Positions 1,582-63,800 of a stretch of 64,000 nt of DNA are shown here, piece by piece. The DNA comes from Candidatus Omnitrophota bacterium (lineage in GTDB: Bacteria; Omnitrophota; Omnitrophia; Omnitrophales; Aquincolibacteriaceae), in assembly GCA_035352955.1 (NCBI GenBank), contig DAOPYQ010000008.1:9701-73700 (forward strand), written 5' to 3'. The notes beneath the pieces are model-generated. The model was not told where the DNA came from. It worked only from the letters and a program-made list of their open reading frames with translations, and ran no database searches. The position numbers and the translations under genes are program-made. The stretch's first letter is position 1, and every line of letters begins with the position of its first letter.

Positions 1582-1598
1582 GCGCGCTCCCCCTTCTT

Positions 1599-4485: not shown

Positions 4486-4556
4486 GTCTCCACCTCCTTA
4501 TATCGAAAAAGCAACTCCACTATTACCCAACTGCTTATCCTGTTTGAAGATGCAAG

Positions 4557-4585: not shown

Positions 4586-5049
4586 GCAATTTAAGTTGTA
4601 ACTTCAATTGTTACAGGGAGTTAAAGAAAACAGGGATTTTAGACAGGAATTTTTGAAAATTTCTATTGGGAAATCAAGCAACGATCACCCACGTCGATCA
4701 TTTCGTCCTCAGGAGCCCCATTTAAGCGGCTATGGCAATCTCTAGGTTGTTTTTATAAGTCTGCTCGAGAGAACCGAGAAGGCTTCCTCAACAGTCCAGA
4801 ATTCGCCATCTTTTTTTACGCCGTCGAAATGGATCGCTTCTCCTCCAGAAATAGCCCAAAGCAGCGCCGTCACAGAAGTTTCGCTTTTCTCGCTTTTTGC
4901 TTTCGCGAACAGAACTCTTTTCCGCATCCACAGACACCGTTGCCGTCCGAATTTTTCAGGTTGTTATAAATTGATAAAAACAGCTATTTCGTGCAAAAGC
5001 AGCGGCGGGAATAAAAAACTCATGAAACCACTTCAAAAAACAGTCGGAT

Positions 5050-15110: not shown

Positions 15111-16022
15111 TCAAACGTTTCCCTTGGGCGCCTCGCTCGCCGACGGCTTCAGAAGGATCCACACAAGCGCCGTCATAAGGATCAGGAATCCCCATCCGAG
15201 GATCCCGTCATAAAGGATCTTGGAGCCCCAGAAAAGCGACCATTTCTGGTGCTGCTTCATAAAAATATCATCCAACCGGACAAAAAAAACACAACCCGCG
15301 TGAAGCCCGATCGACGCATAAAGCGACCCGCTCCGGTAGGCCGCCGTGTTCAGAGCCCACCCAAAAAAGAACAGCCCCACCGCCTGCGGCCAGAACTTCG
15401 GCCATGCGGCCAGAGACAGGAACGGCGCCGTCATTAGGCGAAAACTATCGACCACCGAAGGGGTCTGATCCACAAAGATCTTCTTGATCCCGATGAAATG
15501 GATGAGGGAATAAAAAACCGTCGTGACCAGAATGCTCAGAAACACACGGTTCCCGAAAGTTTTGAGAAGCGACCGGAACACGAATCCGCGAAAAAAGAAC
15601 TCCTCCATAATCCCGATCAAAAGCCCCGTCGCGAGCGCCGCAAGGATCTTCCCGCCCCAGACCACCCACGGGAACGAATCCGGCGCGAAAACCGCCTGCC
15701 CCGCATAAACCCGCAAAGCGCCGACACTTCCCAAGAGAACGAGCCCCGTAAAAAAACCTGTTTTAAAAAGACCCAAGCTCCGCGTATTCCAAAGTAATCC
15801 GAACCGCACCAGCGTCTCCTTACGGATACGAACAAACAAAACGGCGGCCACAAGCGTCCCGATCATCACGATCCGCTGGAAGACCCGTTCGAACTTGTAG
15901 ATCTTGTCGAACCCGAAAAGCCCGAGGAATTTCGGCAGCCAGACATAGAAGAACGGAGCGAGGACCGCGCTCAAAAGAAGGATCACCGCAAAAATGAGAA
16001 CGAATTTAAAAAAACCTTTCAT
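15111..16022 (-). CDS. CPBP-family intramembrane metalloprotease (CAAX protease / Abi-like)
   Basis: Polytopic membrane protein with the CPBP motif EEFFFRGFVF, a downstream HFIGI-type motif and a second conserved His region. 303 aa. Confidence 0.75.
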   Translation of the reverse strand: MKGFFKFVLIFAVILLLSAVLAPFFYVWLPKFLGLFGFDKIYKFERVFQRIVMIGTLVAAVLFVRIRKETLVRFGLLWNTRSLGLFKTGFFTGLVLLGSVGALRVYAGQAVFAPDSFPWVVWGGKILAALATGLLIGIMEEFFFRGFVFRSLLKTFGNRVFLSILVTTVFYSLIHFIGIKKIFVDQTPSVVDSFRLMTAPFLSLAAWPKFWPQAVGLFFFGWALNTAAYRSGSLYASIGLHAGCVFFVRLDDIFMKQHQKWSLFWGSKILYDGILGWGFLILMTALVWILLKPSASEAPKGNV

Positions 16023-42831: not shown

Positions 42832-45800
42832 TTACGCAGCTCGCGCGACGAGCTTCATCTCGACGAACTGCTGGGCCAGCTTGGCGATCTGGCTGATGAT
42901 GAACCCGTTGGTGCCGTTCGCCCGGACTTCCGGCAAATTCTCAGCGACAAAGTTCTTCAAAAGATCCCCTCGCATTTGCGCATCGGGAATGCTGGCGATC
43001 AGATCCGCCAGGGATTTGAGCGGCATGGCCAGAGCACTTGCAACCGCAAGATCCTCGGCACCGATCTTCTCACCGAACGCGAAATGCGCGCCGTCCGCAA
43101 GTCCGGCCATTTGTGCCGCAGTAAGGTGCAACGTCGTGATCCCGCCCCGGGTCGACGCGCCAAGTCTGTTAAGGACCGCCGCTTCCGTTGTTTCCCCGGC
43201 CCGCATCGGCTCCACCCGAAGGATGCTTTGTTTCTCAAGGGCCTCAAGAACTTTCCCGAGCGATCCAAGCTCTGAGGCTGGCACGACGTCTTTACTCTGG
43301 ATTTTTTTACGGATCTCCGAAATAAGCGCAGGCGATCCGACCGTCACAAGCGATGTCTGACCGTCTTCCGTCATAAACATTTTGAGAAGGTAATAAAGAG
43401 CCGTAGGATTCTGCGACAAATACTCCGTCATAAGGTCCTGACCAATCGCCAAAGTCCCGCGCGGATTCTTGACCGTCTGAACTGAACTGTCGGTAACGGT
43501 CAGCGCCCCCACAGACACGGGCCGGGAAATATACAACGGCTCCTCCCCCGGGATCAAACTATGGAGCACCGAACTATAGGCCGTATCATCCGCCGCGTAG
43601 CCGACCGGAATTCCCACAAGTTCCTGAAGCGTCCTCACGATCGCTTCCTTGCCGCCCAATTCATCAAGCTCCTCGATAAGGCGCGAAGGAATAATATTGA
43701 AATAGTAGTAGCGGATAAGCTCGAGCCGCTCGACCGTCATGAGTTCCCGGATCGTTGTGGCCGGAAGGATCGATGTGCGGACTTCGTTCCGGGACGGCCC
43801 TTTCGCGGGAACGCTACCAACTGTGCCAGAAAAACCGGGCGAAGGCAGGCGGATGGACGCCGGAGAAGAACTCGTAGCGACCTCTTTGATTACCGCTCTG
43901 GTCGCGGCAACCGGAATCGCAACCGTCTGAGGAACCTCCGCTTGAATACCTTCCGTCTGAGAAACTTTCGAACGCCTTTCGGAGCGTTTTCCAAGAAATA
44001 TCTGAAAGTGAGCGTCCGCCTTTTCGAAAAGTTTAACGTTCGCGGGAAGATTGGGAGCGCGCTTCCCTGCAGAGGCTTCCTCGTTTTCCAGGATCCAGTG
44101 CCTCAGGGCCATCAGCAGCTGCTTGTGGAGGGCCGGATCCGTCGCCCGTATCCGGGAAAGCAACGAAGGCGTAATCGACACCCCGTCCAGGGAAGCAATA
44201 AATTTGGTTTCATCTGCGGGTATCGAAAATCCTCTGGAACCCTTCGTGACAGCCTCGCCCGTCAGGGGTTGCATTTCACGCCACGCAACCTCTTCGCTGA
44301 GAACTTCCTCTAAAGGTTTCAGAGCCTGAACTTCCCCGGCTTTTAACAACTTCGCCCGCCTGCTATCCACCGAATGAATCAACCCGAAGCCCAAGGTCAT
44401 AGTGATCAAGACAACGGAAAGCGCCGCCATCAGACTGAGAAACGCGAACGACGCTACGGCAGTCACGATCATTCCGCCCGTCACCCACGTAAGAACTTTA
44501 AAGAACTGCTGCTCTTTCGACAACTGTTGGACCTTATCAAGGATATCCCTAAGGTTCCCTGTCTTTTTATCGTTGGTATTTTGTTCTCCAACCTTTTTAC
44601 CCACAAGATGCGGAAACTCGGCGGCGAGCATACCCCAAACCCGGCTGGCGTCAGCATACTCTTGGGTCCCTCTGGGGTAATGGGCTGCGATCATCTTTAA
44701 AACATACTCCATCGGATGGTCCTGGGAGTAGATTGCATGGCTATTCTGGTCACCGCCCTTTTTATTCGTCTTGGGCGCCGAAAGAGCAGGCGCGTTTTCC
44801 AATTTCTTCGCAGCGGCCGCAGCACGCTCTCTGTCCTGAGCTTTTTCGACCGCAAGCTTATAAGCGCCATCCGCTTGACGGATCTCCGCCTTGATCGCAG
44901 GATCCTTCACCGCCAATTCCTCGGCCAAAGCCTTGGGGTCCCTTATCACTTCGGCAAGAGTCGCGGGCCGAATCTCGCCATATTTATCTTTGTCCGCTTT
45001 GTTCTGAACGGCTCTTACGGAATATCCTCCGGGCGCTGTGTAAACCACTTCAATGTTCACGTCCCGGCCGTCGATCTTTCTGATAACGGTGGCCAGGACA
45101 ACCGGCTGGCTGGGCACTTTAGGAGAGGCCATTGAATCGTCCGGCAAGAAGCTGCCATTTTGCACCTGCCCCGTTTCTTTTTTGAGCTTGGCCGCCGCCT
45201 GAAGCCGCTTAACTTCCAAGTGACCGCTGAACCACTTTTGAACCTCGCTTATCACCCCGGGCATTTCTTCCGGAGTCGGCTCAGGCTGCGTTTTGAAGGT
45301 AAAAAGAGGTTCGGTCGGATTTTTCGGATCGAAATAAACAATAACCCCAAAACTGTTTTTCCCCCTGGTCACAAGCTTGTTCCCTATCAGAACCGGTTCT
45401 TTGGAAACAACCGCCGCGACGGGAGACATAGCATGGCTAGCGGATGCCGCAGGGGTCATCGGAGATATTGCCGCCGGCGCTCCCACCACAACCGTTGGGA
45501 CAGCGCTTTGGGGTTTTTGCCCGACCAGCTTTGTCCGTTTGAAATTCTCCGCCGCAGCTTCAAGATCCTGGGAAGTTTCGACAATCTCAAGCCTGTCATC
45601 ATCCGTCACACCTTTGACAAACCAACGGTCCTTAATCGAAGGATCCTGAGCCGGATCAAAAAGGACAACGTATCTCCGTCCTTGGAACTTAAATATGCCG
45701 AAAAGGATCCGCCCCTTGTAATCTACCGTCCCGTCTATGCCATAGCCATCAACACCTCGGTCATCTTGCCACGCCTCATTCGGGTTGCCGATAACCTGCG

Positions 45801-48800
45801 GCGGCGTTCCTTCAATGATCGCCAGAGGAATCTTATGTGAAATTCTGTAGCGAGCTCCGTCCGAACGCCGCTCGGCACGAAGCACTGAGGCTTCGGGAAT
45901 CCTGCGCTGACGTCCACGGGCTTCGACCCCGGCGATCGCCATCTCGATATCTCCCGTAACGTTCGCGGCCATCTGTCTCCTGGAACGCTCCAGCTGACGC
46001 GTCATCGCAGCATCCGCTTCAGCTGCCGCAAGATCCGGATCTTCCGCCACATTCGCGACAAACTCGCGAGCCCGAAGCATCGCAAGCTGACGCTCGAAAG
46101 CAACGTCCACTTCCTGCGCTGCGGCGGCGGAATCTCCAGCCACGTCCGCGATCCAGAGATCATCCCCAACGCGCCGTTCCTTCCTCGCGGTCGAAACAAT
46201 AAATTTTTCCGCAGCAGCGCTCAGAGGCTGCTCCTTACCGCCCACTGTCATAACCCAGGGGGATTCCCCGCGATCAAATGCGCCATAATCAAAAAGCACG
46301 ACCGTCGATCCGTTCGTTCCAGGCAGGGATGCAAAAACGATCCGGTTCCCGGAATCTCTCTGGACCGGTCCGGAAACCACCACGGTCGTACCGCTAAGAG
46401 CAATCACCGCTCCAGTCGGAGATTGGTACCGGATCACCGCTCCTTCGTCCCGCTTCTCCGCACGCAACCGCACATCACCCCGGGGAGCACGAACGGCTTT
46501 CTGGAAAAGAGCCGGTGCGAGAGCTTGGGATGCTCCGAGGCTGAGAAGTTCGTGAAAAGCCAGTCGATCGCCCGTCGTCTTAACGCCTGTGATCAGAGTA
46601 GAGGCGCCTTCCGACCCGATCGCAACAGCCAGCGCCGCCCATCCGGGATTAAGCACGGATCCGTTTTGAACGTGAAGGCCCTGAATCCTGTTAATCGCCT
46701 GATCCAGCACCGCAGTATAAAATGCCGCCTGTTCCTTATAAACCGGGGTCCCGGCCTCAGGATCCTCAAACCGGTTGGTCTCGACATCTTTTCGTGCCAC
46801 CCGGAGCAAATTCAATGCCGCAGAACGAAGCTGTTCCGCAGCAAGTATCGTATCCTTCTCGAGCGCCATCAAATGTTCCACGAGGATCTCCACATGGCCG
46901 GAAAATGGGTGTTCCACTTCCCTATGGATGATCAAAAGACCGATATCCCGCCTTATCCCGTTGATGTCCGCGATCGCCTGCGCACGGCTCACCGCTTCCG
47001 CCGTACTCCGGAGTTCTTTGCGATGTTGTGAACTGTTGCTGGCGAGCGCTATTTGCAAAATACCCGCAGGGCCGGAAAGAACTGGGAGATGTCCGGCCAC
47101 GGATACCGTCTGAGCCTGCGGGTGGAACGACTTCTCCTCTTTCTTCGCACCTTTACCGGCTTGAAGATCAACCGATTCCTTCCCTTCGTCAATAGGAAGA
47201 GTGACCGATGTCGAACCACGACGTTCCGCGCGGATGATCCAGCCACCTTTCCCGTCCATGATCTGTTCCAGCTGATAGGTCAAAAAGTTAAAACCTTTAT
47301 CATCCTCACGGTTTCCCTCCGTATTTTCATCCGAAGGATCTTTGATCCCTTCGATGCGTTTCGTATACCAGGGCGCGAAACCATTCAAGTCACCATCATT
47401 GGTAACTCTCCCTTTCAGGGCTTCCTCAACGTAACGGTTAATGAAAAATTTCATCTGCTGGGTACTTCCGGTAGCGGAGATCATCTCAAATCCTGCTTCA
47501 TCCAGCGAAACGCCGTAAGCATCCCTAAGCTCCCGCAAAAGCCCTTGAGCCCACGCCCGTTTCGCCTTGTCCGTCGTATTCCTCGAAACATTCCGCAGCT
47601 CCGTCACAACGATCGCACGCGCCGCGACATCCAAATTCTCAAGCTGATTTTTTTCGATATATTGGGACTCGACCGCCCGCACAAGCTCGTTGGTTTCCGA
47701 GTCCCCGCTCGAAGCAAGCGCTTTCACGAGAATATCGCAACTATCCGCATAATGGGACTGCGCCAGCACATTTTTTGCGGCCGCCGGGAACGCCCCGAGA
47801 TTCAGGTTCGAGATCCTCTTCAGATCGGCCAGGGCTTCGGCCGGCTCGGGCTTCTTGTCACTGCGCGTCCAGGCTGTCCGTTCGAAATAACCAAGCCGGG
47901 TCCCCTTTCGGATCTCGTCTTCAAGAGAACTGAAAATACCGGCCTTTGCCTTCGCGGCCCCCCCCAGAAACGCTGCCGCCCAAATCCCTTTCAAAGAAAA
48001 CTCACGCCGTGTCATATCACCGCTCCGGATCTCCGCGCGATGCGAGGTTTCGCCCCCGGCACTCCGGGTCTTTTTCCCTGGACCCTGTAGAGAGGATTTT
48101 CCGGAACGGTCGGCCTCCTTCCGTTTTTCTTCCAAGATATGCCGGGCGTGAGAATAAACGGCAAACACAAAGATCGCCACACCGGCCACTGCAGCCGCGG
48201 GGAACAGCCATTGTCCGGCGTTCGTAATGGAAGATGACGCGTCCGCAAGGACCGGAAGTCCTTCAGTCCATTCGGAAGAACGACGCTCTTGGCGAGAAAC
48301 CTTGTTTGTCGCCGGTGCTTCCGTAGCCTGGGCCGAAATCCCGAACCCCCGCGCGGAAACCACCTCGGCGGTAAAAAACGCCGCAACCCCCAACATCAGT
48401 GCGAGCGTTATGGCATTCGAGGCACGCCGCTCCGCCCTCGGACCAACGTGCGTCTCTCCGTATTTGGGCTCCAGATTCACGACCAGCATTCTGCGGGCCT
48501 CGGTCACATCGTAAAAAATACCGTTCTCCCCGAGTCCGAGGATTCTGGAAAATTTCCTGGCCGGTTCGCTCTGCCCCGCGATCCGCTTGATCGCGGCCAT
48601 ATCATGAGCGGCCAATCCCTGAAGGATCGCGTTGTAAAGGGCTTCATAATTCGAATCTCCCGCAACGCGGTCGGCGGCAGTTGAAAAATTTACGGTTTCC
48701 ACCTCTCCGGGACCGAACGTTTTCTGTCCCGTAAGGTCGAAAACCTTTGCCACCGCGGATTTTTCAGAAAGTTTTGAGAGCATGTAAAGAAGACGGATCA

Positions 48801-51800
48801 GGCTCCGGGGATCGCGGGATTTGATCTTGCGGAAATTAAAGATCGCATTCTTGAAGTTCACGGTTCTCATAAAATCCACGAAGGACTCGAAATCGCCCTG
48901 TGCACTGATGTTTTGAAGTTCTTTAAAAACTTCCGACAACTCGATTTCACGCTGGTTGGCAACCTCCGCCGCCCGTTTTTGTTCGAGAAGGCGATCTTGC
49001 TTGTCCCCCAGATCTTTTTCCAGGCGCTGTTTTTCCCGCTGTTTCTCGGGGATCCCCGCCCGTCCGCCGTTCTCTCTCAGAGAGTTCACTTGAGCAGTAA
49101 CACTGTGGATCGCCTGAACATCCGCCGCGATCTCTTCCTGGAGCCGGTTATGATCCGCCGTCAGGGCCTGGACCTTTTCCTGTGCCTGCTGAACCTTTTT
49201 TTCCGCGACTTCCAGCAGCCCCTTCTTTTCGTAAGGTTCCCAAGCTCGCGCGATCTCAAATGCCTGTTTTCCTTCCCCGAGAAATCCTTCGAAAAGCCGC
49301 ACGGCCGGCCAGCTGCCTTCGATGTGGGCGAAAGAACTGAATTTTGAGAGATCCTGGAGAAAAGCAAAATTTCTGATATGTGCATCTGTGGCGACGCTCG
49401 CGAACCGCGACAGAACATACGTGGCCGCCTGCAGCGCGGCGATCTTGAAATACCGGTTGCGTTCGCTGAGCTTCCGGTTCCCGAATTCAAAAACCGGCAC
49501 GCCGTCCACGGTCTTGATCGCGATATCAAGCCCGAAATCCTTCAGAGCCATCCGGATCTCTTCAAAAGGTCGCTGCGTCAGTGTGATGATCGCCCCAAAG
49601 GAAAAGGCATCGCTCCCAAAGATCTCCTCGATCGGTTCTTTGCTGAACGGGGCAACCCCCGAGGGAGCGGTAAAATTGATACGATGAATATCGGGTTTGC
49701 CCGCGGTCTCACGGGCCTTCAACACGGCCAGGCTTACGAAGAAAAGGAGCCGCACGAGGGTCTCGGCATTTAAGGACTGCAGAAAGAAAATACTGTAATC
49801 GAGCGTGCTGGCTTCTTCGGGATTATTGAAGAAATCGTAGAATTTCTGATACTCCGCCGGATACTCCCGCTGCAGCGCATCGATCGCTTGCTTGGCCTCA
49901 TCAAAGGTCGCCTTGGAAATATGGGACTGCCCGTTAGAAGCGAACTTGCGGATCCGGTGCCAAAAGAAACCCTGGTTGAACCGGTTCAGGAAATCGTCTT
50001 CCTGAAAGACCCTCAGGAAAAATTCGAGTTTCTCCCGGGACATCGCCTCACCCTCGCGCGTCGCCAGTACATCGAGGGAATTAAGCAGTGCCAACGTCCG
50101 GAGATACTGTCTTTCCTTGCCGAAAGGCGCCGGATAGTTCCCGTAAAAAAGATTCTGGGTGCTGCGTTCGCCAAATTCGATCGTGCCGAGATCCACATGG
50201 AACCGGATGAGCCAGAGCACTTCTTCCACTTCTTCGGACGAATATCCCATCGTCTGCAAAATTGCGGCTTCCGCGATAAGCCCCGCCCCGATATCCTCAT
50301 GGTTGCCGGCGCCGAGCCCGATCCCGATGTCATGAAAAAATACCGTCAGATAAAAAAGGTTCCGCCGTTTGGCGACCTTCGCCGCGTCTCCGTCGGTCCC
50401 GTAGCGGATGATCTCCTGAAACGCCTTGCGGTAAAGATCGAACTGCGCCTGGTTGAATTTGATCCCCTTCTTGAGCTTGTTAAACGTATCGAGGTCCCCT
50501 TTTTCGATCAGATCGAGGAATTCGATCAGTTCGAGCGTGTGCTGGCTCACCGTCTTGTTGGGATATTTCTTGAAAATATCCCGGTCTTTCCGTGAATCCG
50601 TTCCGCTCTCAACGCGCGGGAACCATTCGAACATGGTTTTGGTCTTTAAAAGTTCTTCCAGACGGGCCCGGATACTGAGTCCCTGCGGTTTCGTCGGGGC
50701 CAACGCCTCGTCAAGCAACGGCGGCAGACGGACGCCCTTAAGATCGGCGTGGTCCTTGTTCACGAGCGGAACCTCGACCCAATCGCCCCACCGCGGATGC
50801 TTCGCCCCGGACTTCGCCTTCGCCGGACCGGCCACGGCGTTCTTGTCCTGAAGGTGGGCCTGGACCTCCTGCCACCGTTCGCGCATCGAATCGATCGAGC
50901 GCCGCAACCATGTAGGCGAACCTTCTCCGAAGTGCAACGTGGAAAAATTCCTCTGGAGCGTCACAAGGCTGTAGATGAGGTCCCGCTCTTCATCTTCTTT
51001 GAAAATGTCGAGCGTTTGCAAAAGCTGCGGGATGATGAGCCAGGAATCGGTCGCCTCGTCGTTGAGGAAGATCCTGGCATAATGCTGGAGAAATGCCGTA
51101 AGCCAGAGGATCTTCTTGAGCGGTTGGGTCTTCTTGTCCGTGTAATCGTTACTCTCGACGATATGGTAGGCCTTATCCAGTTTGTCAACGGCGTCAGCAT
51201 CCAGAGGAGCTTCCTGCCCTCTTCTTTGGTCAAAGAACGCCTTCAGTCCGCCTTCGGAGGTCCGCCGGTGCGCTTCGAGCAGACTCAGGATGTCGTAAGT
51301 GGTCCTCAGCTGATCGTAACGCGAAGAGGTGATCACCAGCGCTTCGGGAATATAGACCAGTTCGCGGATCAAGGTAACGTCGTTCAAGGCCTTCCAGAAT
51401 TCGTCGAGATTCGCACCCGGACTCTCCAGGATCCCCTTAAAAGTCGCCTTTTTGTCAGCCGGAATATTCTGGTGGAACAGGTTGACCGCATCGGTCAGCT
51501 TCCCCCTCAGGTTCCGTTTCCGTTCGGGATCGGTCGTCGAAAATTCGATGCCTTTGAAATAAGCGTGTGTGGCGTTCCGGTAATCGCCGAGCTCCCGGTA
51601 ATGGTCCCCGAGTTTCTCGAAAAGGTCCAGAAACTCTTTTCCGTTGATCTCGGGGATCTGCGCTTTTCCGAAAAGTTTCGCGACATAAGACTTCACCACA
51701 TGCATCGCGCCTTCCGGATCCAAATAGTTTTTCCGGTATTCTCCGAGCAAATTCCGGATCGCCGGAGAAAATCCGTCCCGTTTTTCCATCGCCGGAAGGA

Positions 51801-54800
51801 ACCGATCCAGAACGTTCTGGAACGGGGAAACCGCCTGAACGCCCGGGTTCTCAACATCCTGGACGATCAGATAATCCAGCACATTCATCAGCAGGAAAAC
51901 CTGTTCCGTCAGGAACATTTCTTCGGTCGTGGCTCCCGCGGCAACTTCTCTCGAGGCGAGAAAAGCCTGGATCGATTCCTGGTAAAGAAGCGCCTCAACG
52001 AAAAGGACTGCGGCTTCCGTCGTCTTCTCGTCAAGTCCCTCTGTCCCAAAGACCGACTCGGACAACCGGACACGCTTGCCGGCGGGATCGTAATCTCCCA
52101 TGACCCAGAGGGTCCTGCCTCCGTTGCTGAATTCGCTCACCATCGGAATGTTCCGCGCAAACTCGATAGCGCGGACCGCTCCGGCCGCAGAATAAGCTTC
52201 TTTGACCAAACCGTTCTGGGAAACAAGGCGGGAGAATGCCGTCTCGAAGATCTTCCGTTTCTTTGCTTTTTCATCGTCATCGCCGGAAAAACCCACTTGC
52301 GCAAGTTCTTGTTCGAGTGTCCCGCCCGTCGATATCTCGCCGATCTTCTGGGATTGATAATCCTGAGAAGGTGAAAGGACGCCGTCAAGCGCCCACGGCA
52401 GGCTCACGGGCAAAGGCTTCGCAACCCCGGCGACGCTTCTCCGTTCCGCACGGCTGCTGTCATCGAAAGTCCCCGCGATATCACTCCGGGCGCCCAGATC
52501 GGCATCCAGGATGTCTGAGACCGTACCGTCCGTCCCGACCAGAACCGTTCCGTCAAAAGCGACCGGCCGGCGATCCGACATTTTCCGCGTTCCGTGCCGT
52601 TTCGCGATCCTCGCGCCAAAATCGGCATTAACATCCGCCGCCGGCACGACAACTTCCCCGGTCACCCGGGTTGTCTTTCCGGCTGCCAAAAGAGATTTCC
52701 GCGAAGCGATCCTTTTTTCCACATTCCTGAGATCGCGCCGGAGATCCATAAGATTAAAAGCCTGCACCGAACTCGGAAGATTGTCCCCCAAAAGTTTCAT
52801 CTTGGCCGCGATCCTGGCCTCAAGCGCCGCACGTTTGTCTTCCATCTGCGCAAGCTCCGCATCCAAAGCGCCGGCGCCCGCCGCAGAGGCTGCAACCTCG
52901 GCCCTCCGCTCGGCACGACGGTCGAGAAAAGTTGCCCATGGAATGTCATACAAGGGTTTTACTTTCAGGGTCACGGTGCCTTCGTATTTTCCGGAAACGG
53001 GCTGTTTAACAGGATCGACCCGGACAACGTTGATCTCAACAGAAACGTCCTCGTATTGTCCTGCGCCAACACCGCGTTTCCCCACCGAAATGATTTTCGT
53101 TTCGCCTTCCTCAAGCGTCAGATTGTTGTTCTCTTTTTTATCCTGTTGCTCTCCGAGGATCCGGATCTGGGCCTTCGCAGGAGTTCCCGGAAAAGTTTCC
53201 ACGAGAAAAGCCGAAAAACCATTCCCAATGCCTTCCGAATGCTGCGGCCTTTGCGCATTAAGCGTCACTTCAAAAGGTGCAACTCTACGGGGAGCGTAAT
53301 GTTGCACATATTCCCACAACAGGGAATCATAGTTGCCTTTCAGAAGAGAAACATCCCAACCTTTGACCCCCTTCAAAAGACCTTCGATATGTCGAAGAAC
53401 ACTCAGAGTGAACCCCTCGTCCTTATGCCGAAGAATACTCTGCGTAAAACCAACATCCCTATCCGGGGATTCCTCCTGCCGGATCGCGGCGTCGATCAGG
53501 GGAGTCAGCAACGGTTTTAGAAAAGGCAGTTCGTAGGGCATATACGTATTGATGGCGTGCTTGGCGTTTTTCCAGGTCGCAAACACCGCTTCGGTCTCAG
53601 AAACGCGCTGCCATTTCCATCGGCGAAGCACTTCCTGCACAGTCTCCTCTTCGCCCAACGCAAGACTGCTCAGCATGTCGCGCATGAGTCGCAGGTCATA
53701 CGCCGTCAGGGCCCAATTTCCGGCAAGAAGGATGTCGGGAGAACTGTAAGCCATGACCGGAAATGCTTGGCCCCCCATCGCCTTGACGAGCCCAAGGATG
53801 CGGTCCCCGAGAGCATCGTATCCATGGACCACAAGGATCTCGTTGGGAGCCAGCTGCAAAACTTCACCGTTCGTGCCATTCTCAAGACGGGTCGTGATCT
53901 TGTGCCCTTGAAGCGCACGGGACACATCTTCCACCGTTTGATAATCCAGATCCAGGATATTGGCGTTAATCCCCCGCTCACGAAGTTTTGCGAGAATGAG
54001 ATTGCCCAGTTCCGGCTTTCCGGAAGCACGCGGCCCGCCGATCAGGATCACACTACCCCGCTCTTCCGGAAGCTCGTCAATAGCTTCTTCGACGAGCGCG
54101 TCAAGTTTTTGTTGCATGGCCCGATCCGCTCGTCGGATCAGCTCAAGCCTCTTTTCCGTAGAGTCGACCTCGTTAAGCTCCGCCAAAGTCTCCGGCCGCC
54201 AACGCTTCGCTCCGGTATCCATAACATAAGAAGGATGCGCTTCATCAAAAGGAGCCGCAAGGTCCGGATCCGCCGCAAGCATCGCGTCCACGATCCGGCT
54301 GATGGCGATCTGATAGGCCGCCTCGCGAAGCGTGATCTTTTGAGACTCCGAAACCCGCGAAATATCATAGAATGCGCTCACCACCTTATCTTCCATAAGG
54401 CCATTCCCGGCAACCTCAGGCCAAAGCTCCCCGATATTGTTCTGCCTCCATTCTAAAGAGGAAAAAGCCACCCCGCCGTCGTTGGTGGCCACATCGGGAA
54501 GAATGATGGCGCCTTTGTCGAGAAGGATCTGTTCGGATCCGTCATTTTCAAGAGGGCCGTTCGCGCCCTCGGAAATGATCTTGGCACGAATAAGCTTGGC
54601 GATATCTTTGTTAACGGTTTTTTCCTTCGCCGCAAGCGCCAGGACCGTGACGTCGCTTGCCCAGAAATCTTCTATAGATTCCACGCGAGCGTCCTCAGGA
54701 TGCGCTTTCGCATACGTCAGGATTGTGTTCTTTTTCGACGTCCCGTCCGCGTTCCTCTCGGCCAAATGCTTGTCGAGCGCGTTGAGATCGAGTCCCGTAT

Positions 54801-57800
54801 CCTTCACGGCGGCCACAGCGACGGACTGGCCATCCACGAATTCCTTGATGGCCATGACGTGCGCTCCGTTATCATAAAAGCTTCGAGCCGCATAACTGCC
54901 GACATTCCCGTAAGCTTCCACGGCGATTCTCTGACCCGCAACACCGGCGCCGATCCCGAGACGTTCCCCGTAGATCTTCAGCGCTTCTCGCGTCACATAG
55001 TAGAGGCCCAGACCCGTCGCCGGAGTGCGCCCCGCGGCGCCGCCCTTGCCTTCTGGTTTTGCGGTCACGGTGGCCACAGGAGAGCCTTCACTCCTGTCGA
55101 TATGCCGCTGGCCATAATAATGTTTCATATAGTATTCGAGATAAGGGAGGGCAGTCTCATCCTCCTCCGCAAGCGCAGCGCGGAATGCATCGTTATCGAA
55201 AAGCTCCGGATTCTTGATCTTCAGGAACTCATCAGCAAACCATCCCATTTCTCGGGAAGTCGTTCCGACGTCGCCGGCCGGCACATCCGAAAGAGGCCCG
55301 AAGGCGTTAGGATCCTGCTTTAAACATTCCGCCACATACCCGCGCATCAACCGCGCCAATTCCTTGACGGAGAGTTCTTTGGGATTGATCGCCACGCCGC
55401 CTTTACCGCCACCATAGGGAAGCCCCGCGATCGCATTTTTGACGCTCATTTCCGTCGCAAGGGCTTTGATCATAGATTCGTTCACCCCAAGGGCGAAGCG
55501 GATACCGCCTTTGTAAGGCCCTCGGTAGGGCGCATGACCGATGCGGTACCCATCAATGTATTGCGTCTCTCCGCCTTCATCCAGAGTCAGGGGGATCCTG
55601 ACACGAATGACTTTCGTGAACTGTAACAACTTCTCAAGGATCCTTGGATCAAGCCGGATCTGCTCGGCCACTTTTCGGATCTGCGCCTGCGCATTCCTCA
55701 GGAAACCTTCCCCCTTCTCTCCAGCTTCCGTCTTGAGCTTCACACCCTCCGGATCTGTCTCCATATAACGAATCTTCTTCCACCGCTCAGCAATCTTCGC
55801 AGTAGTTTCCGACGCTCCAGCTCCCGCATCCTTCCGCAATTCCGAACGACGGACAGTCGCATCAAGCGGCCCAGCGGCAGCCGAACGCGCCACAAAATCA
55901 GCGGCAGTGATCGTCAGAGTCTTCAGATTGCAATTCTTGGCAAGCATGATCTCGACGCGAGTCAAAGGCAGTGCGGGATCGATCGCATCAAGAGGGATAT
56001 CGAACCCCCGGGTCGTTGCGGTCACCGGATACATGTAAGTGCCAAGGACCCTTTCACGGGAACCTTTCAGCCCATAAACAAGAACCTGAATGTTTGCCGC
56101 CTGCCCCTCCTGAGAAAGTTCTGGCGCCAGAGTTGTCAAACGAAGCGATGCCGCTTCCGAAGCGGGTTTATTGGGAGTCAGAGCCCACAGAGCGCTCCCG
56201 GCCTTTTTGGCATCGTTGCGCTGGATCAAGACCGTTCCGTTCGTCACAATCACCGAAACAGCCTCCAGAGAGGTCCACCCCGCCGTAAAATCAAACGGAT
56301 CCACCGGCGTCAGCGCTACCCGGTGAAAGCGTAAAGGCTCCGTCAGCATAGCGGAATCCGTAAAAGAAATGGTGTTCGTCTGCCCCGGCACGATCGTCAT
56401 TTCGTCGCTCGTTACCGGCGTCCGTTCCCCTGTCAGTGCATTTGATCCCAAGACGAACGCAACCGCTTTAAAAGACGCGGCATTGGTCCCTGAAACAACA
56501 AATCCGATCGTTCCGGTCCCGCTCACCCGACCCGGGTCGTAGCTCGTGGTACGAACCACCAAGTCTTCCGCAAAAGAGAGAAAAGCCGACATAAAAAGAG
56601 CCGTAAACGCAATCCCCCTCGCGGCGTTCGAGCGCGGCGTAAGATTGCTCAGCCGCTTCTCGGCGCGAGACGCTTTTTGCTCCAGTAACGCTAACACGTC
56701 CGCGTAGAGAGCCGGCTGTCGATCCTTAAGAAAGATCTGCTCCTTGCCATGACTGCGCGAGATTCGAAGGCCTTCCAATCCCACGATGGCCTCGAAGTAA
56801 ATGTCATGGTAAGGCATACGATAAACCGTGTAGTGATGAGCCAAAGTGGGAAGAGATTGGATCGCTACATCTCCGGACCGAAGATAGATCGCGTACTCCT
56901 GTAGCGTCAGATCCATACCAAGTTTCAACCTCGGCACGATTTCTTTTAGCCTTATAGCATTCAACGCCGGGGTCACAGCCGCGACGACCCGCGCAAAAAC
57001 ACCGCTAAAGCCGGATTTGCCGGAAGCGGGCGTTTCTTTTAATGCCGGAAGCCGGACAGGCTTGTGTTGGAGCGAAACCGACAGCGCCGCCGCGTCAATG
57101 GCGCCCGCAATCGTGTTCCCGCGCCTGGCGATCGACGTACCGATCACGCGATTCACCGCCAAGGCCTCTTCCAAGGTCAGAACGGCATAAAACTTCTCTG
57201 CAACCTTCGGCGCCTCCGTCAAATTCGAGGCCCGGAACACCCTGGCGACGTTACGCACTTCGTCTGCCGTAAAGGTCTCGGCTGAACCCTTTCGCGCAAG
57301 CACTCCGTTAAAAATATCCGCGAGCGACTGATACTGGCTCGCGGTCAACGCATCCTGCTCCGTCGCACCCGTCTCACGCAATTCCGCGCGCCAGGCGCTA
57401 ACAAGAGCGCTCACGAACATATCGCGATGCCAGGACTGGCCCAGCACCCATTCGACCTCTTGTAATTCTTCAAAACTCATCATCCCCGCCCAGGCGAGGA
57501 AATCAAACCGAAGGTTCGCGCCTTCCTCTTCAGTCTTGCCCGGAAGAAGTTTCTTGAGCAATTCACTCTGGAGACCGTAGCCTGCGCGGCCAAAGATCTC
57601 GTTGGCGACAAAAAGACCGGCCCCTTTTTCAAAATCGATCCCGACCTGGGGATCATAATTAGAATCGCCCTTCTTGAACCAGGGCGGACTCGTCACGCCA
57701 CCGCGGGGCTCGCGGATCGGCTGATCCGCGCGGTTGATATCGACGCCGCTCCCAATACGAGCCTTTTCATCTCGAGCCGAGGCGGACGCATTCTTCCTGT

Positions 57801-60800
57801 CATCATTGTCGTTACGCTGGGGCATGATGGCGAACACGATCACAAGCGCTCCGGCGGCCCGGTAGGCCGAAATCAGCTTTCGGTCAAGAAGCAATCTTTG
57901 TTCCTCTGTCACACTCGTTCCCTTCGCCGATCCCAAATATGCGATTGCGAAAAGACCGCGCGCCGCCGTGCCATAGTCCGAGATCGTCTTAATGGAAGGA
58001 CATTCGATATCGTTCGGAAGAATAAGGCAGGAGAACTTCGCCCCCGGTTTCATGAAGACGCCGCGCATGAACTCGAGCGCGTCATCCATCACCATCGGCG
58101 TCGTGTCCCCCGCCGCGAGCGCTTTTTGATAAGCCTTTTGCGTTTTCAGATAATTTTCATAATTTTTCTTAAGCGCTGTCTGCTCGCCTTCAGGAAGCGC
58201 TTCAAAGATCTTCCTCATGTTCTCCGTGGTTTCGTCAGCCTTCATGGCGATGGCGAGCGCCTTGCCGAGATGACGGTCGAGAACGTTCCCAAAATCATCT
58301 CCCTCTTCGCGTTCCGCGAAAGGATCCACGTCCCTCTTGTAATCAAAAACCTTGTCTTGGTTCTCCGGACCGATCCCCTTCAGTTCGATCCCCAGCTGGT
58401 TGTGAAGCTTGGCAATAATCCCTTCAGTCGTATTCCCATCGCCGTTGATCATCTTGACGTAGCGCTCGGCCTTCTCCCGTCTGGAATCACGCAGCATTTT
58501 CTGAAGCGCGGGATCCCGAAGCTGAGCGATTGAATGGACCAGGACATAGATGGTTTTAGCTCCGGGGTAATTGATCTCTTTGCCCTCCAACGGCGTTCCC
58601 TTGGAATTAACCTGGATCTCGAAACCAACCGTAGCTTTGATGCCAAACTTCTTCGCGGCCGCGAGGAACCGCTCCGCTCCGGCCAACGTGTAATGATCGA
58701 TAAGGCCTACCGTCTGAAGCCCGGCGCGCCAGGCGCGGTAAACGATCTCTTCGGGATAGAAGGGGCTGTAAGAATCCTTGCCGTGAACGTGGTTGTTGCT
58801 TTCAAGTGAAAGCGGCGCACGGCGGATCTTGCCCGCTTTCGCAAGCGCGACGATCTTGTCAACCGCGGCTTCGCGGGTAGCCTGGCTACGGCTCTTCAGA
58901 TCGTTTTCGAGGAAAAGAAGTTCATTTTCGGAGGCGATGTCGTTCCCCATTTGATTGAGCGTGGGGTGGTCACTGCCGCGCAGGTCCGCGGCAAGTTTTT
59001 CATAAATGCGCGGGGGAATGAACTGCAGCACATACGGCAGATAAAGCTGGCGGAAGAGCGCGAGCGCGGCATTCGGGTTCTCTGCCGCTGCCTTGGCAAG
59101 GATCTCCGTCTTAAAATATTCCATTGCGCCTTCAAAATCGCGGTTGCGGTCGTTCTCGACTTTTCCGATATTGCTGTAAAAACTGAGCAGTTTCTCGAAC
59201 CGTTTCGACCGGTATTCCGGATGCGTCGTATCGAACGCGAGCCTGAGGAGCGCCATCGTCCGGCGTAATTCAAAAGGGTTTGTCTTAAGGTCGATGGTTT
59301 CCTGGGCAATCCCGCTTTTTTCGATATCAAACCGGGCGACTTCGTCACCGGGGCGGGCCCCATAAAGAACGACCTGTATCGTTTCCTCGCCGGCGCGGGA
59401 GACTTTCTCGATCACGGCGCGCACAGCCAGTTTGTCGTCCGCCAGCTTCACCGGGTCGCGAAAGCTTACGGAATACGACTTGCTTCCCCACCCCATGCTT
59501 TTTACATCGTGGACCGTGTCTGGCCTGAGACTATCCGTCAACTGATCAAAATAATCGTAGGTAAGGCCGCGCTCCTGCATGATCTCCGGCACCGACGCAG
59601 TCGAGGCTTCAAGCGCCTCCACAGCCTTTTGATATTCTCCCTTCTGCACCAGATTCCGGAATTTCTCTTCACTGCGAACTTCCGCGCGGAAATCTCTGGC
59701 TGAAGCTCTTGGAAGGGCTAATCCCCTGTCAGAGGCCTGAGGCACCAACAGCAAAGTACCGTCCTTCGGTTCGACCACAAAGATCGTGCGGGAAGATGTT
59801 TGATAAGGCCGGAACCCGCCGGGCCCGGACGTTGTGAACATTTCAAGCCGGTTCTTCCGGACACGCGCGGAAACAAAAGTAAGCGGAGCCGACGGATAAC
59901 CGGTCAGCATCGCCAAAGACACTTCTTTTGAACCGGCCAAACGCTCGAGCAATTTGACCCCCTGCTCAAAAGTCAGCCGCTTATTTTCGGACGGAGGATT
60001 CACGACCCGTGTCGCGACAATCTCCCGCAATTCCGCACGAGAGCCCAATATGTTCGCAAGCGCGGCTTTCGGGCTCTCCCCGCGCAGTAACTCGGCAGCG
60101 ATCGCAGAGACGACAAACGGGCCCTCGGCGATCAAGTCTTCACCGAAAAGACCCCAGAAAGCATTGGGAGACAATTCCCTGATCGTTTGTTTATGACCAT
60201 CCGAAATGACGGCGATGGAAGGAAAAGGCCGCGTCGGTGGTTGAGACGGATCCACAAGCAATGACATCTGCAGACTTACCACAAAATCCTGAACCCGTTG
60301 GGCCGCCATAGCCACCAGCGCCCCTTGGGACGCCTCCAGCATCACTGCCACAAACCCTGTGAATTCCCCTTTTTTCTCGAGGATGTCAAGAACCTGGCCC
60401 ATCGTAACCACGTCGGCTTCCATGATTTGACCGGCTTTTGCATTCGGCTTCCGGGATTTCCCTTCCCTCCGTTCGGCCCTTTCACTCTCGCCCCATGCCG
60501 CGGCTCGCTCCTCGGGAGATTGAGCCTGGAAACGCCGCCACTCTTCGCGCTCCGCTTCGGGACCGGTCAATTGCGATCCGTCTTGCAAGGAACGGGATGC
60601 GGTTTTCCGCCCAAAGTCTTCAACATACCGGACGCCTGCCGCCTGAAGCAACTGCGCGACTTCAATTCCGACCGGCCCTGCCAGTTCCACATCGGGACCC
60701 ATCAGTTGATCGAGGCGCACCGCATCGAAAAACGCCCCGCCCCGGAGCTCGGCACGGACAGTTTGGGCCTTCTCCTGATGTCCGCGGATCGCGGCGTCGA

Positions 60801-63800
60801 TCAACTGGATACCGCCGCCCTGATCAATAGCCTTGCCCAACTCTTCGGGAGCGGGTAAGAAGAAATACTTTCTTTCCGCAAGAAGTTCTTCGTAGGCTTG
60901 TTTGGCAACCTTGAAACGATCATCCCCGGGCTTTATCACGCCAGGGACCTTCGCCCGGACACTCTCATAATAAAGCCCGCGAACGACCATCAGCTCGTTC
61001 TCTAACATCTGCTCTATCATGGACTTCACGGCGGTTCCCGCCGAAACATCGAGGCTTGAACGCTTCTCTTTCCGGGATTCCTCGGATCTCATGTCTCTTT
61101 CCGGAGCAGATACCCTCGCCGTCGCCGATACGTTTTCTGCCGGAAGAAGATACGGCAAGAGCCTGGGAGTAAAAATCAATGCGCCGCCGAGGGCTGCCCC
61201 TACGGCAAAAGTGATCCATCCCAAATAAGCCGCGCCCGTAAGAATGGCCACGGCTCCGCCCGCGTTCGGCGCGATAAGCGCAACAAGATAAAGGCCCGAA
61301 AGCCTGAAAGGCTTCGCAATCCCCGCCAACGATTGGGCATTGACCTCGGGGAAGAAAAACTTCATGGCTTTCCAAATCGGGACAAGCACTGCAGCAAGCG
61401 CCGCCAAAAAACCGATGTGCGCAATCGCCGCGATCAATTCCCAAACGCCGGAAAGCTTGTCCGCCACGACTTGTCCCACGGAGCGGTCCGCCGCCTTTTC
61501 AACAGACCCCGGTACGGTGATGCTTTCCCGCTTCTCGGCGCGGAATGCCGCAAACAGCTTGGCGCTCTTCTCCTCCGCGGTAAGTTTGTTCGCTTTTTTG
61601 TCACTGGAAGGGTCTTCAGTGACCCGGCCATCCTCATAAACGGTAACTCTTTTCTTCTCGCTCGACACCACAAGTTTCCCCGGTTTTGAGGTATCGATCC
61701 GGAACGCGCCGTAAATCGTAGGCTTGTTAACCGGCGTCACATCAATGACAGAAATATCGCTGCCAACGTCCGCAAAGGACAAAGCAGCGTTCTCGCCATA
61801 CGGTTTGCACATTTGCCGGAACTGCTCAATAAATTTTGTCACAAATGCGGGCGTCGGGACCCGGACAAGCAGCGGACGAACTTCCGGACCCTGTTCCCGG
61901 AATGCCGCGACGTCGGCGCTCTTCCACTCCATTTCCCCCGTTTCCACTTTCGCGGATGTAACGCGGATGATCAACTTCTGAGCACCGGCCTTCGACCGGA
62001 CATCGAAAATGGTAAAACCCGGAAAAATACCATGACCGTAATAGGCATCACTAAACTTTCTTGAGAAATCGGCACGCATTTCTTCGAATTTCTTTTCTTG
62101 CGTTTTCTCAAGCCAATACGAATACGCCCTCATATGCAGCGCGTCAAAAAATTGGCCGTAGTTGCGGTGTCCGGTCAGCATCGTCTTGAGCTTCAGATAG
62201 AATGCCCCGGTCGGACCTTCCTTGTCGTAAACGGACCAAAGGGCCGAGAGGATCTCATCTGGATAGAGCTCAGCCAGGCCCATCCGGCGGGTCATATCCG
62301 CCATGATCGCTTGCTCATCCCGCAATTCCGCGCGCCAGGCCCCATACGGGGATCCGTCATAACCGGTCTGGCGGCTATTGTCATCTGCATCAGACGCATT
62401 GGACGCTTCCTCGGCCGCCCTTGCCGCCTCGGCAGCGAGCTGGTTATCAAAAGACTGCAGAGCTTCGCTCGACCGGGGATCCCCGATCTTCCGCAATTCA
62501 GCCGCGATCATTTTTCTGAACGCAGGGGAATTTTTTTGATTCTTCAGCCTTGCGACTAATTCAGGCACACTCTCAGCCCCGCGAAATTCCACCAGCGCAG
62601 GAACCGCGGCCATACGGACATACTCGAAAGAAGAATCCAGCCCCTCCGCAAGCTCGGCCCACGCGCCCAAGTCTTTCAATAAGTCAGCGGTGGCCTCGCA
62701 AACACGGTAGTCCGGATACTTCAAATTGTTCCGGAGCCGGGGGATCACAGATTCCGGTGATCGTTTAAATTCAGGCAGCAAGTCCTGCAACAAGTGGGTC
62801 ACCGCGATTCGCACGCGGCCGGCATCATCATTTAAGGCCGCCGTCAGTTCAGGAATGGCCCGGCTTCCGTCACGCTCGCGAAGTGCCCAAAATGCCGCAG
62901 CCCGAAGATCTTCATAGGGAGATTTTTTTTGTCCGGCAAGAATATCCCACTGCTTTTTCTGAAAAAGTGCGGGCACCGCGATTTCCCGAACCCGTTCCTC
63001 ATCATTGACCAGTGCCAGGCTGAGCCCATGCAAATCATTGAGTTCTTTGATGCCCTCTACCGCAGCTCTCCGGGCTTGCAGGCTATCATCGGCTAAAGCG
63101 CCTTCCAGGAGAGGCAGGGCTTTGGCTCCCTCCGTTTTAACAAGTATCCGGAGGATCTTCTCACGGATCATTTCCGCTTTCAGGCCCATTTTGGATGGCT
63201 TCCAGATCTTCATCAGTCGGGGTCCCACGGAACTTCCGATCTCGATCAATCGGGCGGCAGCCTCGCTCGAATATTCCCAATAACCGAGTCTGCGGATATT
63301 CCATTGAACAGGATCTACGATCCTCAATGCCAAATAAAAAATCCACCTCATTGTTTTGACAAAAACGGTGATGACCGATGTGGCGACAAGCGCCAGAATG
63401 CCTGCCATCACGGCAAGGGTGAAGATTCCGCTAAAACCCCAGACCCCGAAAAACGTCACCGCCGTCATACTGCCAATAAAAATCTTGCCGAGCGAACGAT
63501 CCCACATATATTGATCCCAAAGCTTAACCAAAACAGGCGCTTCCTTCCGCTTCTCGGCGCGAGGAAAGAAAAAACCTTTTTCCGGAGCAGCAGGTTTGAC
63601 GTCGGCCAGAACCCAAACTCGCAAATCAGGCTTTGTGAAAGAGATCGCGTAAAGAACGACCGCCGACGGATCCGCTTTTGCCCGGGCAAGAGCTGTTTCG
63701 GATTGGATCGGCCCCCCGTCTTTGACGCTTAAAATGAATTCTTCGGGCGTCCGATGGTTCAGTGAAGTTTGAATGGCCTGAAGGCCGGTCGCATAACGCC

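Follow-up and report, generated by a model that had tools for sequence, protein, structure and literature searches.

The minus strand of a 64,000-nucleotide stretch of DNA from a Candidatus Omnitrophota bacterium (contig DAOPYQ010000008.1 of assembly GCA_035352955.1; hereafter the window) carries a giant open reading frame (ORF), and within that ORF lies a segment that very probably encodes an active NAD(P)-dependent glutamate dehydrogenase (GDH) of the ~50-kDa hexameric class. The dehydrogenase is joined to a P-loop domain with a fold like that of uridine kinase, and the resulting unit is bracketed by copies of a short motif that recurs at module junctions along the giant. We lean, by a little, toward a polyprotein-like ORF whose GDH unit would work as a discrete cytoplasmic enzyme, and the evidence favors such a released cassette over a catalytic domain operating inside a chain of 7,823 amino acids. 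It is from the sequence that we infer that the chain is cleaved by proteolysis, that the GDH unit resides in the cytoplasm, forms hexamers, and is active as an enzyme, and that the P-loop domain is regulatory.

An Embedded Glutamate Dehydrogenase of the Hexameric Class

The giant ORF occupies positions 42832 to 64000 of the window on the minus strand, as do all of the features described below unless noted otherwise. Its frame is open up to base 63999, at the window edge; the window carries the C-terminal 7,055 codons, and the start lies 768 codons past the edge. The full gene (23.5 kb) encodes 7,823 amino acids (P0125, which the window protein matches at 100%) and is called identically in three assemblies (NCBI, JGI, and Logan) from different samples; the window sequence is identical to contig CAYPJP010000007.1 of GCA_964411105.1. 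Metagenomes of the anaerobic-digester type, JGI 3300010352 and SRR4236661 among them, also contain the contig. The original prediction, made from the letters of the window, had begun the ORF at 63924 and had placed GDH ~2,700 residues from one end and ~3,900 from the other. That start was not borne out, as the frame runs on to the window edge and the 7,823-residue call is present in GCA_964411105.1, and the dehydrogenase is now located at about residues 3,540–4,010 of 7,823.

Five peptide strings that had been cited as the ordered motifs of a Glu/Leu/Phe/Val dehydrogenase all fall in one minus-strand frame, between 55560 and 54439, and a hidden Markov model (HMM) search of the segment, the check proposed with that claim, identified both domains of the family. 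GDH domain I (ELFV_dehydrog_N, PF02812), which is responsible for substrate binding and oligomerization, lies at 55225..55614 (E 1.9e-39), and domain II (ELFV_dehydrog, PF00208), the NAD(P)-binding Rossmann fold, at 54274..55044 (E 1.8e-42). In numbering from the GTG at 63924 these are residues 2771–2900 and 2961–3217. The Pfam scores, 134.8 and 146.2 bits, compare with gathering cut-offs of 25.3 and 23.4. The nearest solved sequences are GDH subunits of Thermus thermophilus (E 2.7e-69), and the NCBIfam models for GDH (GdhA/GdhB) match with E values as low as 2e-76.

The residues that matter most for function are in place. Domain I contains the equivalents of K89 (55510–55512), K113 (55438–55440), K125 (55402–55404), and D165 (55270–55272), and domain II contains the Rossmann motif AYGNVG (54898–54915) and the equivalent of S380 (54460–54462). 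Thus, the γ-carboxyl lysine and serine that confer glutamate specificity (K89 and S380), the catalytic lysine of GGGKGG and its aspartate partner (K125 and D165), and the α-carboxyl lysine are all present. The equivalents of K89, K113, K125, D165, and S380 are, moreover, invariant in 32 of 32 cluster representatives over an identity range of 27%–100%. The predicted structure matches the two-domain GDH fold with its NAD(P) Rossmann domain, and the confidently modeled portion includes the active-site cleft. Hence the earlier claim of a whole, apparently competent GDH stands, and the alignment that it had proposed for inferring substrate specificity points to the glutamate type. As judged from these comparisons, the GDH is a divergent subfamily of the glutamate-specific hexameric class. 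The acidic residue ending β-2 was uninformative as to cofactor preference (the window has E at this position, and family members have D, N, E, T, or S).

An insertion of ~47 amino acids follows REMGWFADEF (55084..55224) and is conserved in six orthologs; it is predicted to be helical, with a block-mean pLDDT (predicted local distance difference test) that is mostly 85–92 and in one block 67. The original prediction had noticed this insertion and had called it the only obvious deviation. The insertion is real, but it is accompanied by a conserved N-terminal extension of ~55 amino acids, a small additional insertion within the Rossmann fold, the AYGNVG sequence, an NDGGV variant, and the fused P-loop domain. 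The same ~47-residue insertion is found in two free-standing proteins, P0085 and P0130. P0085 is a GDH of 564 amino acids encoded on a visibly GC-rich contig (L013, 2411–4180), and it has in addition an extra loop preceding the D165 region. Because this unrelated free-standing GDH carries the insertion too, the insertion is, on the alignment, a trait of the subfamily, one that arose before the embedding in giants or independently of it.

A Two-Domain Unit with a Degenerate P-Loop Partner

The original prediction had treated GDH alone as the module. Rather, the dehydrogenase is the N-terminal half of a two-domain unit of ~850 amino acids (residues 3486–4343 of P0125; 53275–55848 in the window), and the functional unit, which also exists as a free-standing gene of 800 codons, is GDH plus a domain resembling uridine kinase (Udk) and the PRK family (53290..54201). 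The latter has a Udk/PRK-like α/β P-loop fold; relative to the Udk, PRK, and pantothenate kinase structures (3asy, 1rz3, 3avo, 9qko, and 1xrj), it adds a C-terminal helical extension of ~100 amino acids. It has neither a canonical Walker A sequence (GxxxxGK[ST]) nor a match to a family HMM: PF00485, the Pfam model for PRK, was not hit, and weak matches to the P-loop region (best E ~5e-6 to 0.07) were below Pfam thresholds. The non-canonical Walker A, GGPRASGKP (54013–54039), retains the lysine, as do 31 of the 32 family representatives. The next residue is S or T in four of the 32 and proline in the window, and the Walker-B-like glutamate is histidine in the lineage of the window. Because of these substitutions at Walker A and Walker B, we consider the domain most likely to be nucleotide-binding and probably regulatory, and not a kinase. 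A protein-homolog search with the P-loop domain returned zero matches, and a metagenome scan with an alignment of the domain found one locus, L014, which may be the same sequence as L009, as both contigs measure 109,148 bp. The cassette ends with a lineage-specific tail of ~125 amino acids (52918..53289) that, by alignment, is not conserved in the orthologs.

Might the GDH module be a pseudoenzyme, or act on some other substrate, and serve instead a structural, oligomerizing, or ligand-sensing role? Several features count against an ordinary GDH and toward such a role. Its identity to free-standing GDHs in the protein-homolog search is 34%–39%, and as the best of them is merely 39% identical, substrate and cofactor use could differ. 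Its scores lie under the NCBIfam equivalog cut-offs (257 bits versus 620, and 251 versus 750). The first Rossmann glycine is alanine (AYGNVG for GFGNVG), the NDGGV variant and the extra insertion are further departures, and the partner domain, with no S/T in its Walker A and histidine for the Walker-B-like glutamate, appears degenerate. On the other side, K89, S380, K125, D165, and K113 are kept without exception among the representatives, the GxGxxG core of the Rossmann fold and the sequence EGANGP are retained, and the GDH fold is predicted with confidence down to its active-site cleft. We judge the pseudoenzyme explanation to be highly improbable.

The GDH Unit Is the Conserved Core of Otherwise Divergent Giants

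To survey the distribution of the unit, the 858-residue block was compared by phmmer with 1.84 billion cluster representatives. GDH and the P-loop domain are co-linear in about 35 clusters, at 27%–39% identity, in proteins of 750–7,823 amino acids. P0130 is a free-standing gene for the unit (800 amino acids) in a Verrucomicrobiae metagenome-assembled genome (MAG), where its flanking genes are unrelated. P0139, a giant from another lineage, is named [quoted passage not shown] by NCBI, and P0140, an Omnitrophota giant with the unit, is annotated as a HEAT-repeat protein. AF2 predicted the whole unit with a pLDDT of 84.1 and a pTM (predicted template modeling score) of 0.85. We hold with high confidence that GDH and the Udk-like domain constitute a discrete two-domain unit. 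When the GDH segment was used in a protein-homolog search, all of the matches were ordinary GDHs of ~417 amino acids, at 34%–39%, and they included neither the query's own protein nor the orthologs described next; this word-indexed search is apparently blind to giants, unlike the phmmer search of the representative library, and its negatives are uninformative as to how rare the fusion is.

A scan of species-representative genomes uncovered five more Omnitrophota loci with a GDH that is 75%–82% identical, each within a frame that stays open for 3,629 amino acids or longer, up to more than 7,196. When these five frames were compared by BLAST with the window protein, only a block of ~855 amino acids (70%–75%) and, faintly, the last ~200 residues were conserved. 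At one of the loci, L007, the giant ORF precedes a gene for tyrosyl-tRNA synthetase (TyrRS) that is 81% identical to the TyrRS of the window, and for this reason we consider the two loci syntenic. Module-by-module BLAST of the window protein against P0126 revealed three homologous modules, namely a head of ~660 amino acids (54%), the GDH unit (74%), and the tail (28%), and no detectable counterpart in P0126 of the ~20 other modules. P0126 and P0127 are closer to each other; ten of their modules pair one-to-one with their boundaries at the motif described below, and conservation is highest in the GDH unit (82%). By these comparisons the GDH unit shows the constraint of a housekeeping protein inside a gene that otherwise changes fast. 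The GC content of the cassette, both overall and at third codon positions (GC3), equals that of the rest of the giant gene, which speaks against its recent horizontal acquisition.

A Lineage-Specific Motif at Module Junctions

The GDH cassette opens with the motif RSELR (55834..55848; residue 3486 of 7,823), and it is here that conservation among six species begins; it closes with RAERR (52903..52917). A motif scan found 21 further copies of R-[SAKQN]-E-x-R between 43777 and 63561, each extending 15 nucleotides downward from its start at 63561, 62334, 61542, 61074, 60756, 60480, 60039, 59688, 57390, 56667, 52452, 48438, 48294, 48039, 47232, 47022, 46464, 46185, 45879, 43986, or 43791. The window protein thus has 23 copies (16 of them RAExR), as compared with 0.3 expected from sequence shuffles, and the orthologs have 12–19 copies each, mostly RSExR. 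Elsewhere in the window, outside the giant gene, the motif occurs at the level of chance.

The placement of the motif coincides with boundaries of homology. In the six-species alignment, conservation begins exactly at the motif and the ten residues upstream of it are unrelated; over the six species the bracketing is exact to 0–8 residues upstream. The next motif comes 7–8 residues after the conserved block in L008, L010, and L011, and zero motifs are found inside the block in the six species. All of the Pfam domains of the giant fall wholly between motifs. In the AF2 model of the GDH unit, pLDDT is below 50 over the ~40 residues that start with the motif, and this part is predicted to be disordered. 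Other lineages use other sequences: R-x-S-P-S-G in P0139 (R-x-S-P-S-G-E, with 11 copies of SPSG), [RH]-F-A-E in P0146 and P0275 ([SAT]-[RH]-F-A-E, 12–18 copies), and R-P-S-M-T-G in P0154 (three copies). In each of these three lineages its own motif brackets the GDH unit, and the permutation p was ≤0.005 in every one of ten proteins. A possible further junction motif is A-S-S-L-G, of which P0128 has three copies. The sequence RAEAR at the N-terminus of P0085 was considered as a motif and set aside as most likely due to chance, in that P0085 lies among separate genes and the contig is visibly rich in GC and in Arg/Ala.

In 130 instances from six giants, the codons for the glutamate and the last arginine of the motif follow background usage, with all six codons used for the latter, and more than 12 different residues occur at position 4. 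Because the codons for the glutamate and the last arginine vary synonymously, selection appears to act on the motif as a peptide. This argues against a DNA-level recombination signal or an RNA signal, and Rfam gave zero matches and tandem repeats were absent in the giant ORF. The first arginine is nevertheless encoded by CGC or CGT (CGY) in 86% of instances (background 45%) and the serine by TCN in 97% (background 70%); this bias may reflect interchange of serine and alanine, as TCN and GCN are one base apart, or a signal at the nucleotide level.

Signal Peptides Begin at the Motif

Lipoprotein and Tat-type signal peptides normally work at a free N-terminus, and lipobox sites are cut by signal peptidase II. 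Cysteine is scarce in the giants (2–10 residues each), and in the five orthologous giants nine of 30 cysteines are the lipobox cysteine of a canonical lipoprotein signal peptide located 16–42 residues past a motif. The lipoboxes are of the types LAGC, LVGC, FSGC, FTGC, and VSGC, and the charged n-region of the signal peptide is the motif itself. These internal signal peptides begin at RSExR and lie at 3063–3094 and 3221–3246 of L009, 135–156 and 300–326 of P0127, 1220–1247 of P0126, ~1575–1622 of L010, and ~2104–2135 and ~2615–2655 of L011. One of them is also a twin-arginine (Tat) signal, RSEVR-GEETRREFIKKALMFGVVAAVVGLAGC. The window protein has no lipobox; it does contain RAEIR-SGDM-TRREFSLKGIWAAAFLGGAAKAKA and several other hydrophobic segments close to motifs.

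The GDH unit itself has no signal and no transmembrane or hydrophobic segment. Directly upstream of it lies a weakly hydrophobic segment resembling a signal-anchor, followed by a β-rich module, and no stop-transfer sequence intervenes before the GDH. In an uncleaved chain this arrangement would place the GDH outside the cell, an implausible topology for an NAD(P)-dependent enzyme.

Released Cassette or Intact Chain

Two features expected of a polyprotein are thus seen in the giant ORF: a short site recurs at module junctions that are also homology boundaries (23 motifs as against 0.3), and its modules resemble independent proteins, as exemplified by P0130 and by the lipoprotein and Tat signal peptides at module starts. 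The polyprotein-like reading is the most economical because signal peptides begin at the motif and the GDH unit exists in free-standing form. Under this reading the giant would consist of a head module, ~20 modules of fast turnover, the GDH unit, and a tail module, split by a lineage-specific motif, R-[SA]-E-x-R, which would mark the processing sites. Some of the released modules would carry a newly exposed Sec, Tat, or lipoprotein signal at the N-terminus and would be exported. [quoted passage not shown] Between the fixed head, the GDH core, and the fixed tail, the variable cassettes would undergo rapid turnover. Release of the GDH unit by processing strikes us as an even proposition. We propose more tentatively, and with somewhat less than even confidence, that Omnitrophota giant ORFs of this kind are genuine polyproteins in which a lineage-specific pentapeptide at ~25 processing sites per chain would release exported lipoproteins, Tat/Sec substrates, and cytoplasmic housekeeping enzymes, the cell's GDH with its fused nucleotide-sensing Udk-like domain being one of the last group.

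Several observations weigh against a processed polyprotein. Pfam and NCBIfam searches found no peptidase domain in the giant ORF, and the head domain has no recognizable family. P0131, P0134, P0135, P0140, and P0149 carry the GDH unit with no over-represented short motif. A short conserved motif located in a disordered region might just as well serve as a linker or as a site for docking or for a chaperone. Taken protein by protein, hydrophobic segments are only marginally enriched downstream of the motif (P = 0.03–0.49), and the internal signal-like helices could serve as signal-anchors in an uncleaved chain.

Some of these same observations would fit the principal alternative, in which the 7,823-residue chain stays intact, GDH and the P-loop domain act in cis while tethered in a membrane-anchored multi-enzyme scaffold (for channeling metabolites at the membrane, for example), and the motifs are just flexible linkers between modules or docking sites. 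The frame is uninterrupted in three assemblies, the motif region is predicted to be disordered, and a peptidase domain was not found in the ORF. In a 2026 preprint, moreover, such proteins make up a category of membrane-anchored "multi-enzyme metabolic clusters" (bioRxiv 10.64898/2026.06.07.730766). Strong hydrophobic segments flank a stretch of ~4,200 amino acids (about 908 to 5168, counted from the GTG at 63924) that holds all of the GDH, PHP, HD, and P-loop domains and could form a single cytoplasmic loop. But with thousands of residues attached on either side, a hexamer-forming GDH core would be sterically awkward, and the GDH unit is known as a free-standing gene. Linkers, furthermore, rarely keep an exact, lineage-specific pentapeptide at more than 20 junctions or exchange it for another between lineages. 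A lipoprotein or Tat signal that starts at the motif would be sensible only if the N-terminus there were free or were freed by cleavage, and the signal-anchor-like segment upstream, lacking a stop-transfer sequence, would put the NAD(P) enzyme on the wrong side of the membrane. We consider an intact working chain to be a serious rival, though the less likely reading. The claim that GDH is an internal module of a polytopic giant is accordingly upheld in part: it lies within a real giant ORF with hydrophobic segments, seen in three assemblies, but its working state is probably otherwise, inasmuch as the unit is bracketed exactly by motifs and signal peptides start at the motif.

A second alternative dispenses with proteolysis and has ribosomes initiate internally, at each motif or close to it, to give separate proteins from the one mRNA. 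It would account for signals of the N-terminal type at module starts, a Met or Val codon is present ~33 residues into the cassette (RYMETD/TYVESD), and the CGY and TCN bias is not explained by the peptide. However, with no stops between modules, ribosomes from upstream would read through; the motif has no conserved start codon, and its fourth position accepts any of more than 12 residues; the residues from the motif to the methionine (AKIAERWKKI) are conserved as protein; and the final arginine draws on all six of its codons. We regard internal initiation as very unlikely. Last, that the giant frame is an artifact of mis-assembly or missed stops and the GDH-kinase gene an ordinary separate gene might be entertained given that free-standing homologs are known and MAG assemblies are sometimes chimeric, but we give this almost no credence in the face of an identical locus and 7,823-residue call in the NCBI, JGI, and Logan assemblies, a syntenic position of GDH in five further species (inside frames that run without a stop over 3,629 up to more than 7,196 amino acids), a 21-kb stop-free frame that chance cannot give at 55% GC, and normal use of the standard code in adjacent genes.

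Other Modules and Neighboring Genes

Besides GDH, Pfam and NCBIfam recognize just three kinds of domain in the giant, namely HEAT repeats, PHP, and a segment of the HD type. The HEAT-repeat region (62404..63117; Pfam HEAT_2, E 7.3e-18) lies wholly between two motifs. The PHP phosphoesterase domain (58510..58791; Pfam PHP, E 2.3e-7) belongs to a module of 766 amino acids and has a weak NCBIfam match to 3′,5′-nucleoside bisphosphate phosphatase. The HD-domain segment (50182..50376) lies in a module of 1,338 amino acids downstream of GDH; it matches the NCBIfam GlnD-type HD model (E 9.9e-8, 30 bits versus a cut-off of 959) and resembles the HD region of GlnD, [protein-PII] uridylyltransferase. 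The presence of a GlnD-type HD near an enzyme of nitrogen assimilation is suggestive, although the similarity is confined to the level of the domain. The ORF also has ~10 hydrophobic segments.

The C-terminal tail module (42835..43791), which ends in LVARAA, is weakly conserved (24%–30% identity to the orthologs). In related multi-module proteins (P0126–P0259) the last ~200–320 amino acids are likewise a weakly conserved tail module, and by eye one or two alanines terminate ~20 of ~30 apparently complete C-termini, following a run of hydrophobic or basic residues (ATAKSA, SIARAA, VLIKA, and LLRFA). At the other end, outside the window, a head domain of ~500 amino acids follows an N-terminal signal-like segment (within the first 768 amino acids; ~40–600 of P0125). 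It is common to seven aligned giants with the GDH unit, and an eighth, P0135, has the same signature by eye. Its invariant residues are H47, E75-G76, and G488-G489-x-H491 (IQDAH...VEG...GGFHS). No Pfam or PDB profile matches it, and its only homologs are hypothetical fragments from Omnitrophota. These motifs are reminiscent of the TraB/Tiki GX2H enzymes; the idea that the head is a TraB/Tiki-like protease that cuts the chain found no support in Pfam, PDB profile, or homolog searches, and it is retained simply as a lead.

The surrounding genes are of the housekeeping kind (TyrRS, IleRS, DnaE, GuaA, GuaB, ProC, and others) and use the standard code normally. On the plus strand, opposite the giant gene (43561–62559), are ~17 ORFs of 150–541 amino acids, most likely spurious antisense frames of a coding region of 55% GC. 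A gene for a CPBP/Rce1-like intramembrane protease (15111–16022) is located among housekeeping genes ~27 kb from the giant ORF, and nothing was seen that ties it to the giant.

Comparison with Known Systems

Giant ORFs are the signature oddity of the Omnitrophota (PMC10066038; bioRxiv 10.1101/2023.11.21.568195; bioRxiv 10.64898/2026.06.07.730766), and their functions, conservation, and cleavage points are described as unknown in the accessible literature; a 2023 preprint states as much for the cleavage points (bioRxiv 10.1101/2023.11.21.568195). The lineage-specific motifs, which stand at homology boundaries and at the starts of signal peptides, are concrete candidate processing sites, and the GDH plus Udk-like unit, the best conserved of the modules compared in the giants, is one that can be assayed. 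Together the junction motifs and the fusion make the question of giant-protein processing directly testable. The GDH-kinase-fold fusion is a candidate new mode of GDH regulation. If the GDH of the giant were the organism's sole GDH, then a central enzyme of carbon and nitrogen metabolism would be expressed from a polyprotein, an unusual organization for a housekeeping function, and one that would account for the cytoplasmic-type enzymes within "surface" giants.

The ORF in the window is longer than 20 kb and comes from an Omnitrophota genome, as in the 2023 definition of Seymour. It shares with the "Archaeovorins" and the "multi-enzyme metabolic cluster" proteins its host, an ORF of more than 20 kb, an N-terminal signal, several hydrophobic segments, HEAT repeats, scattered enzyme domains of cytoplasmic type, and poor conservation between species. 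At 7.8 thousand amino acids (kaa) it is smaller than the size cut-offs of the surveys (≥10 or ≥30 kaa). It differs from the Archaeovorin type (West-Roberts 2023), which is defined by transmembrane regions, HEAT repeats, SecA-DEAD, C39/S8, and a length of at least 30 kaa, in that Pfam found no SecA, C39, S8, or dockerin. Multi-enzyme metabolic clusters have many enzyme Pfam families and no dominating repeat; the window giant is free of tandem repeats and has distinct families (GDH, PHP, HD, and HEAT), but those detected number only four and the protein is under the 10-kaa cut-off.

The original prediction had presented GDH inside a giant protein as new. Its novelty is smaller than that: giants tiled with enzymes have been published (bioRxiv 10.64898/2026.06.07.730766 and 10.1101/2023.11.21.568195), P0139 already bears an NCBI name that identifies the domain, and the 180-kDa GDH of Mycobacterium smegmatis (7a1d) is a precedent. 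What appears to be undescribed is the GDH-kinase-fold fusion and the junction motifs. The giant-protein papers and the searchable literature make no mention of the GDH domain, the GDH plus Udk-like unit, or the punctuation motifs.

Among the GDHs themselves, the window enzyme is 30%–34% identical to hexameric ~50-kDa enzymes (GdhB of T. thermophilus, 3aog/3aoe; Pyrobaculum islandicum, 1v9l; and Thermococcus profundus, 1euz). To these it adds the ~47-residue insertion after the D165 helix, the N-terminal extension of ~55 amino acids, AYGNVG and NDGGV, the fused P-loop domain, and the 7,823-residue ORF. Large GDHs (L_115 and L_180, the latter including 7a1d) likewise have a catalytic domain internal to a long chain with non-catalytic flanks, but the window GDH has neither the Bac_GDH-type catalytic domain nor the ACT-like and helical flanks that define that group. 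A functional analogy may be drawn to the GDH of T. thermophilus, which, according to work cited in PMC12301742, is activated via an AMP-binding, catalytically inactive homolog of APRT (adenine phosphoribosyltransferase). In both cases, as far as that citing account goes, GDH is paired with a degenerate fold from nucleotide metabolism that could report energy or nucleotide status. The analogy is functional only: the partner in T. thermophilus is a separate protein of another fold, whereas here it is a fused Udk-like domain.

Finally, we note the resemblance to processed polyproteins, such as those of viruses and the RgpA, Kgp, and HagA precursors of Porphyromonas gingivalis, the latter being cut at Arg or Lys. 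As in those systems, a single ORF would encode several units, punctuated by a short recurring site that contains arginine, whose products would have differing destinations. The Omnitrophota giants would differ in that cleavage is deduced from sequence, in having ~25 modules that include an enzyme of central metabolism, and in a motif that varies from lineage to lineage.

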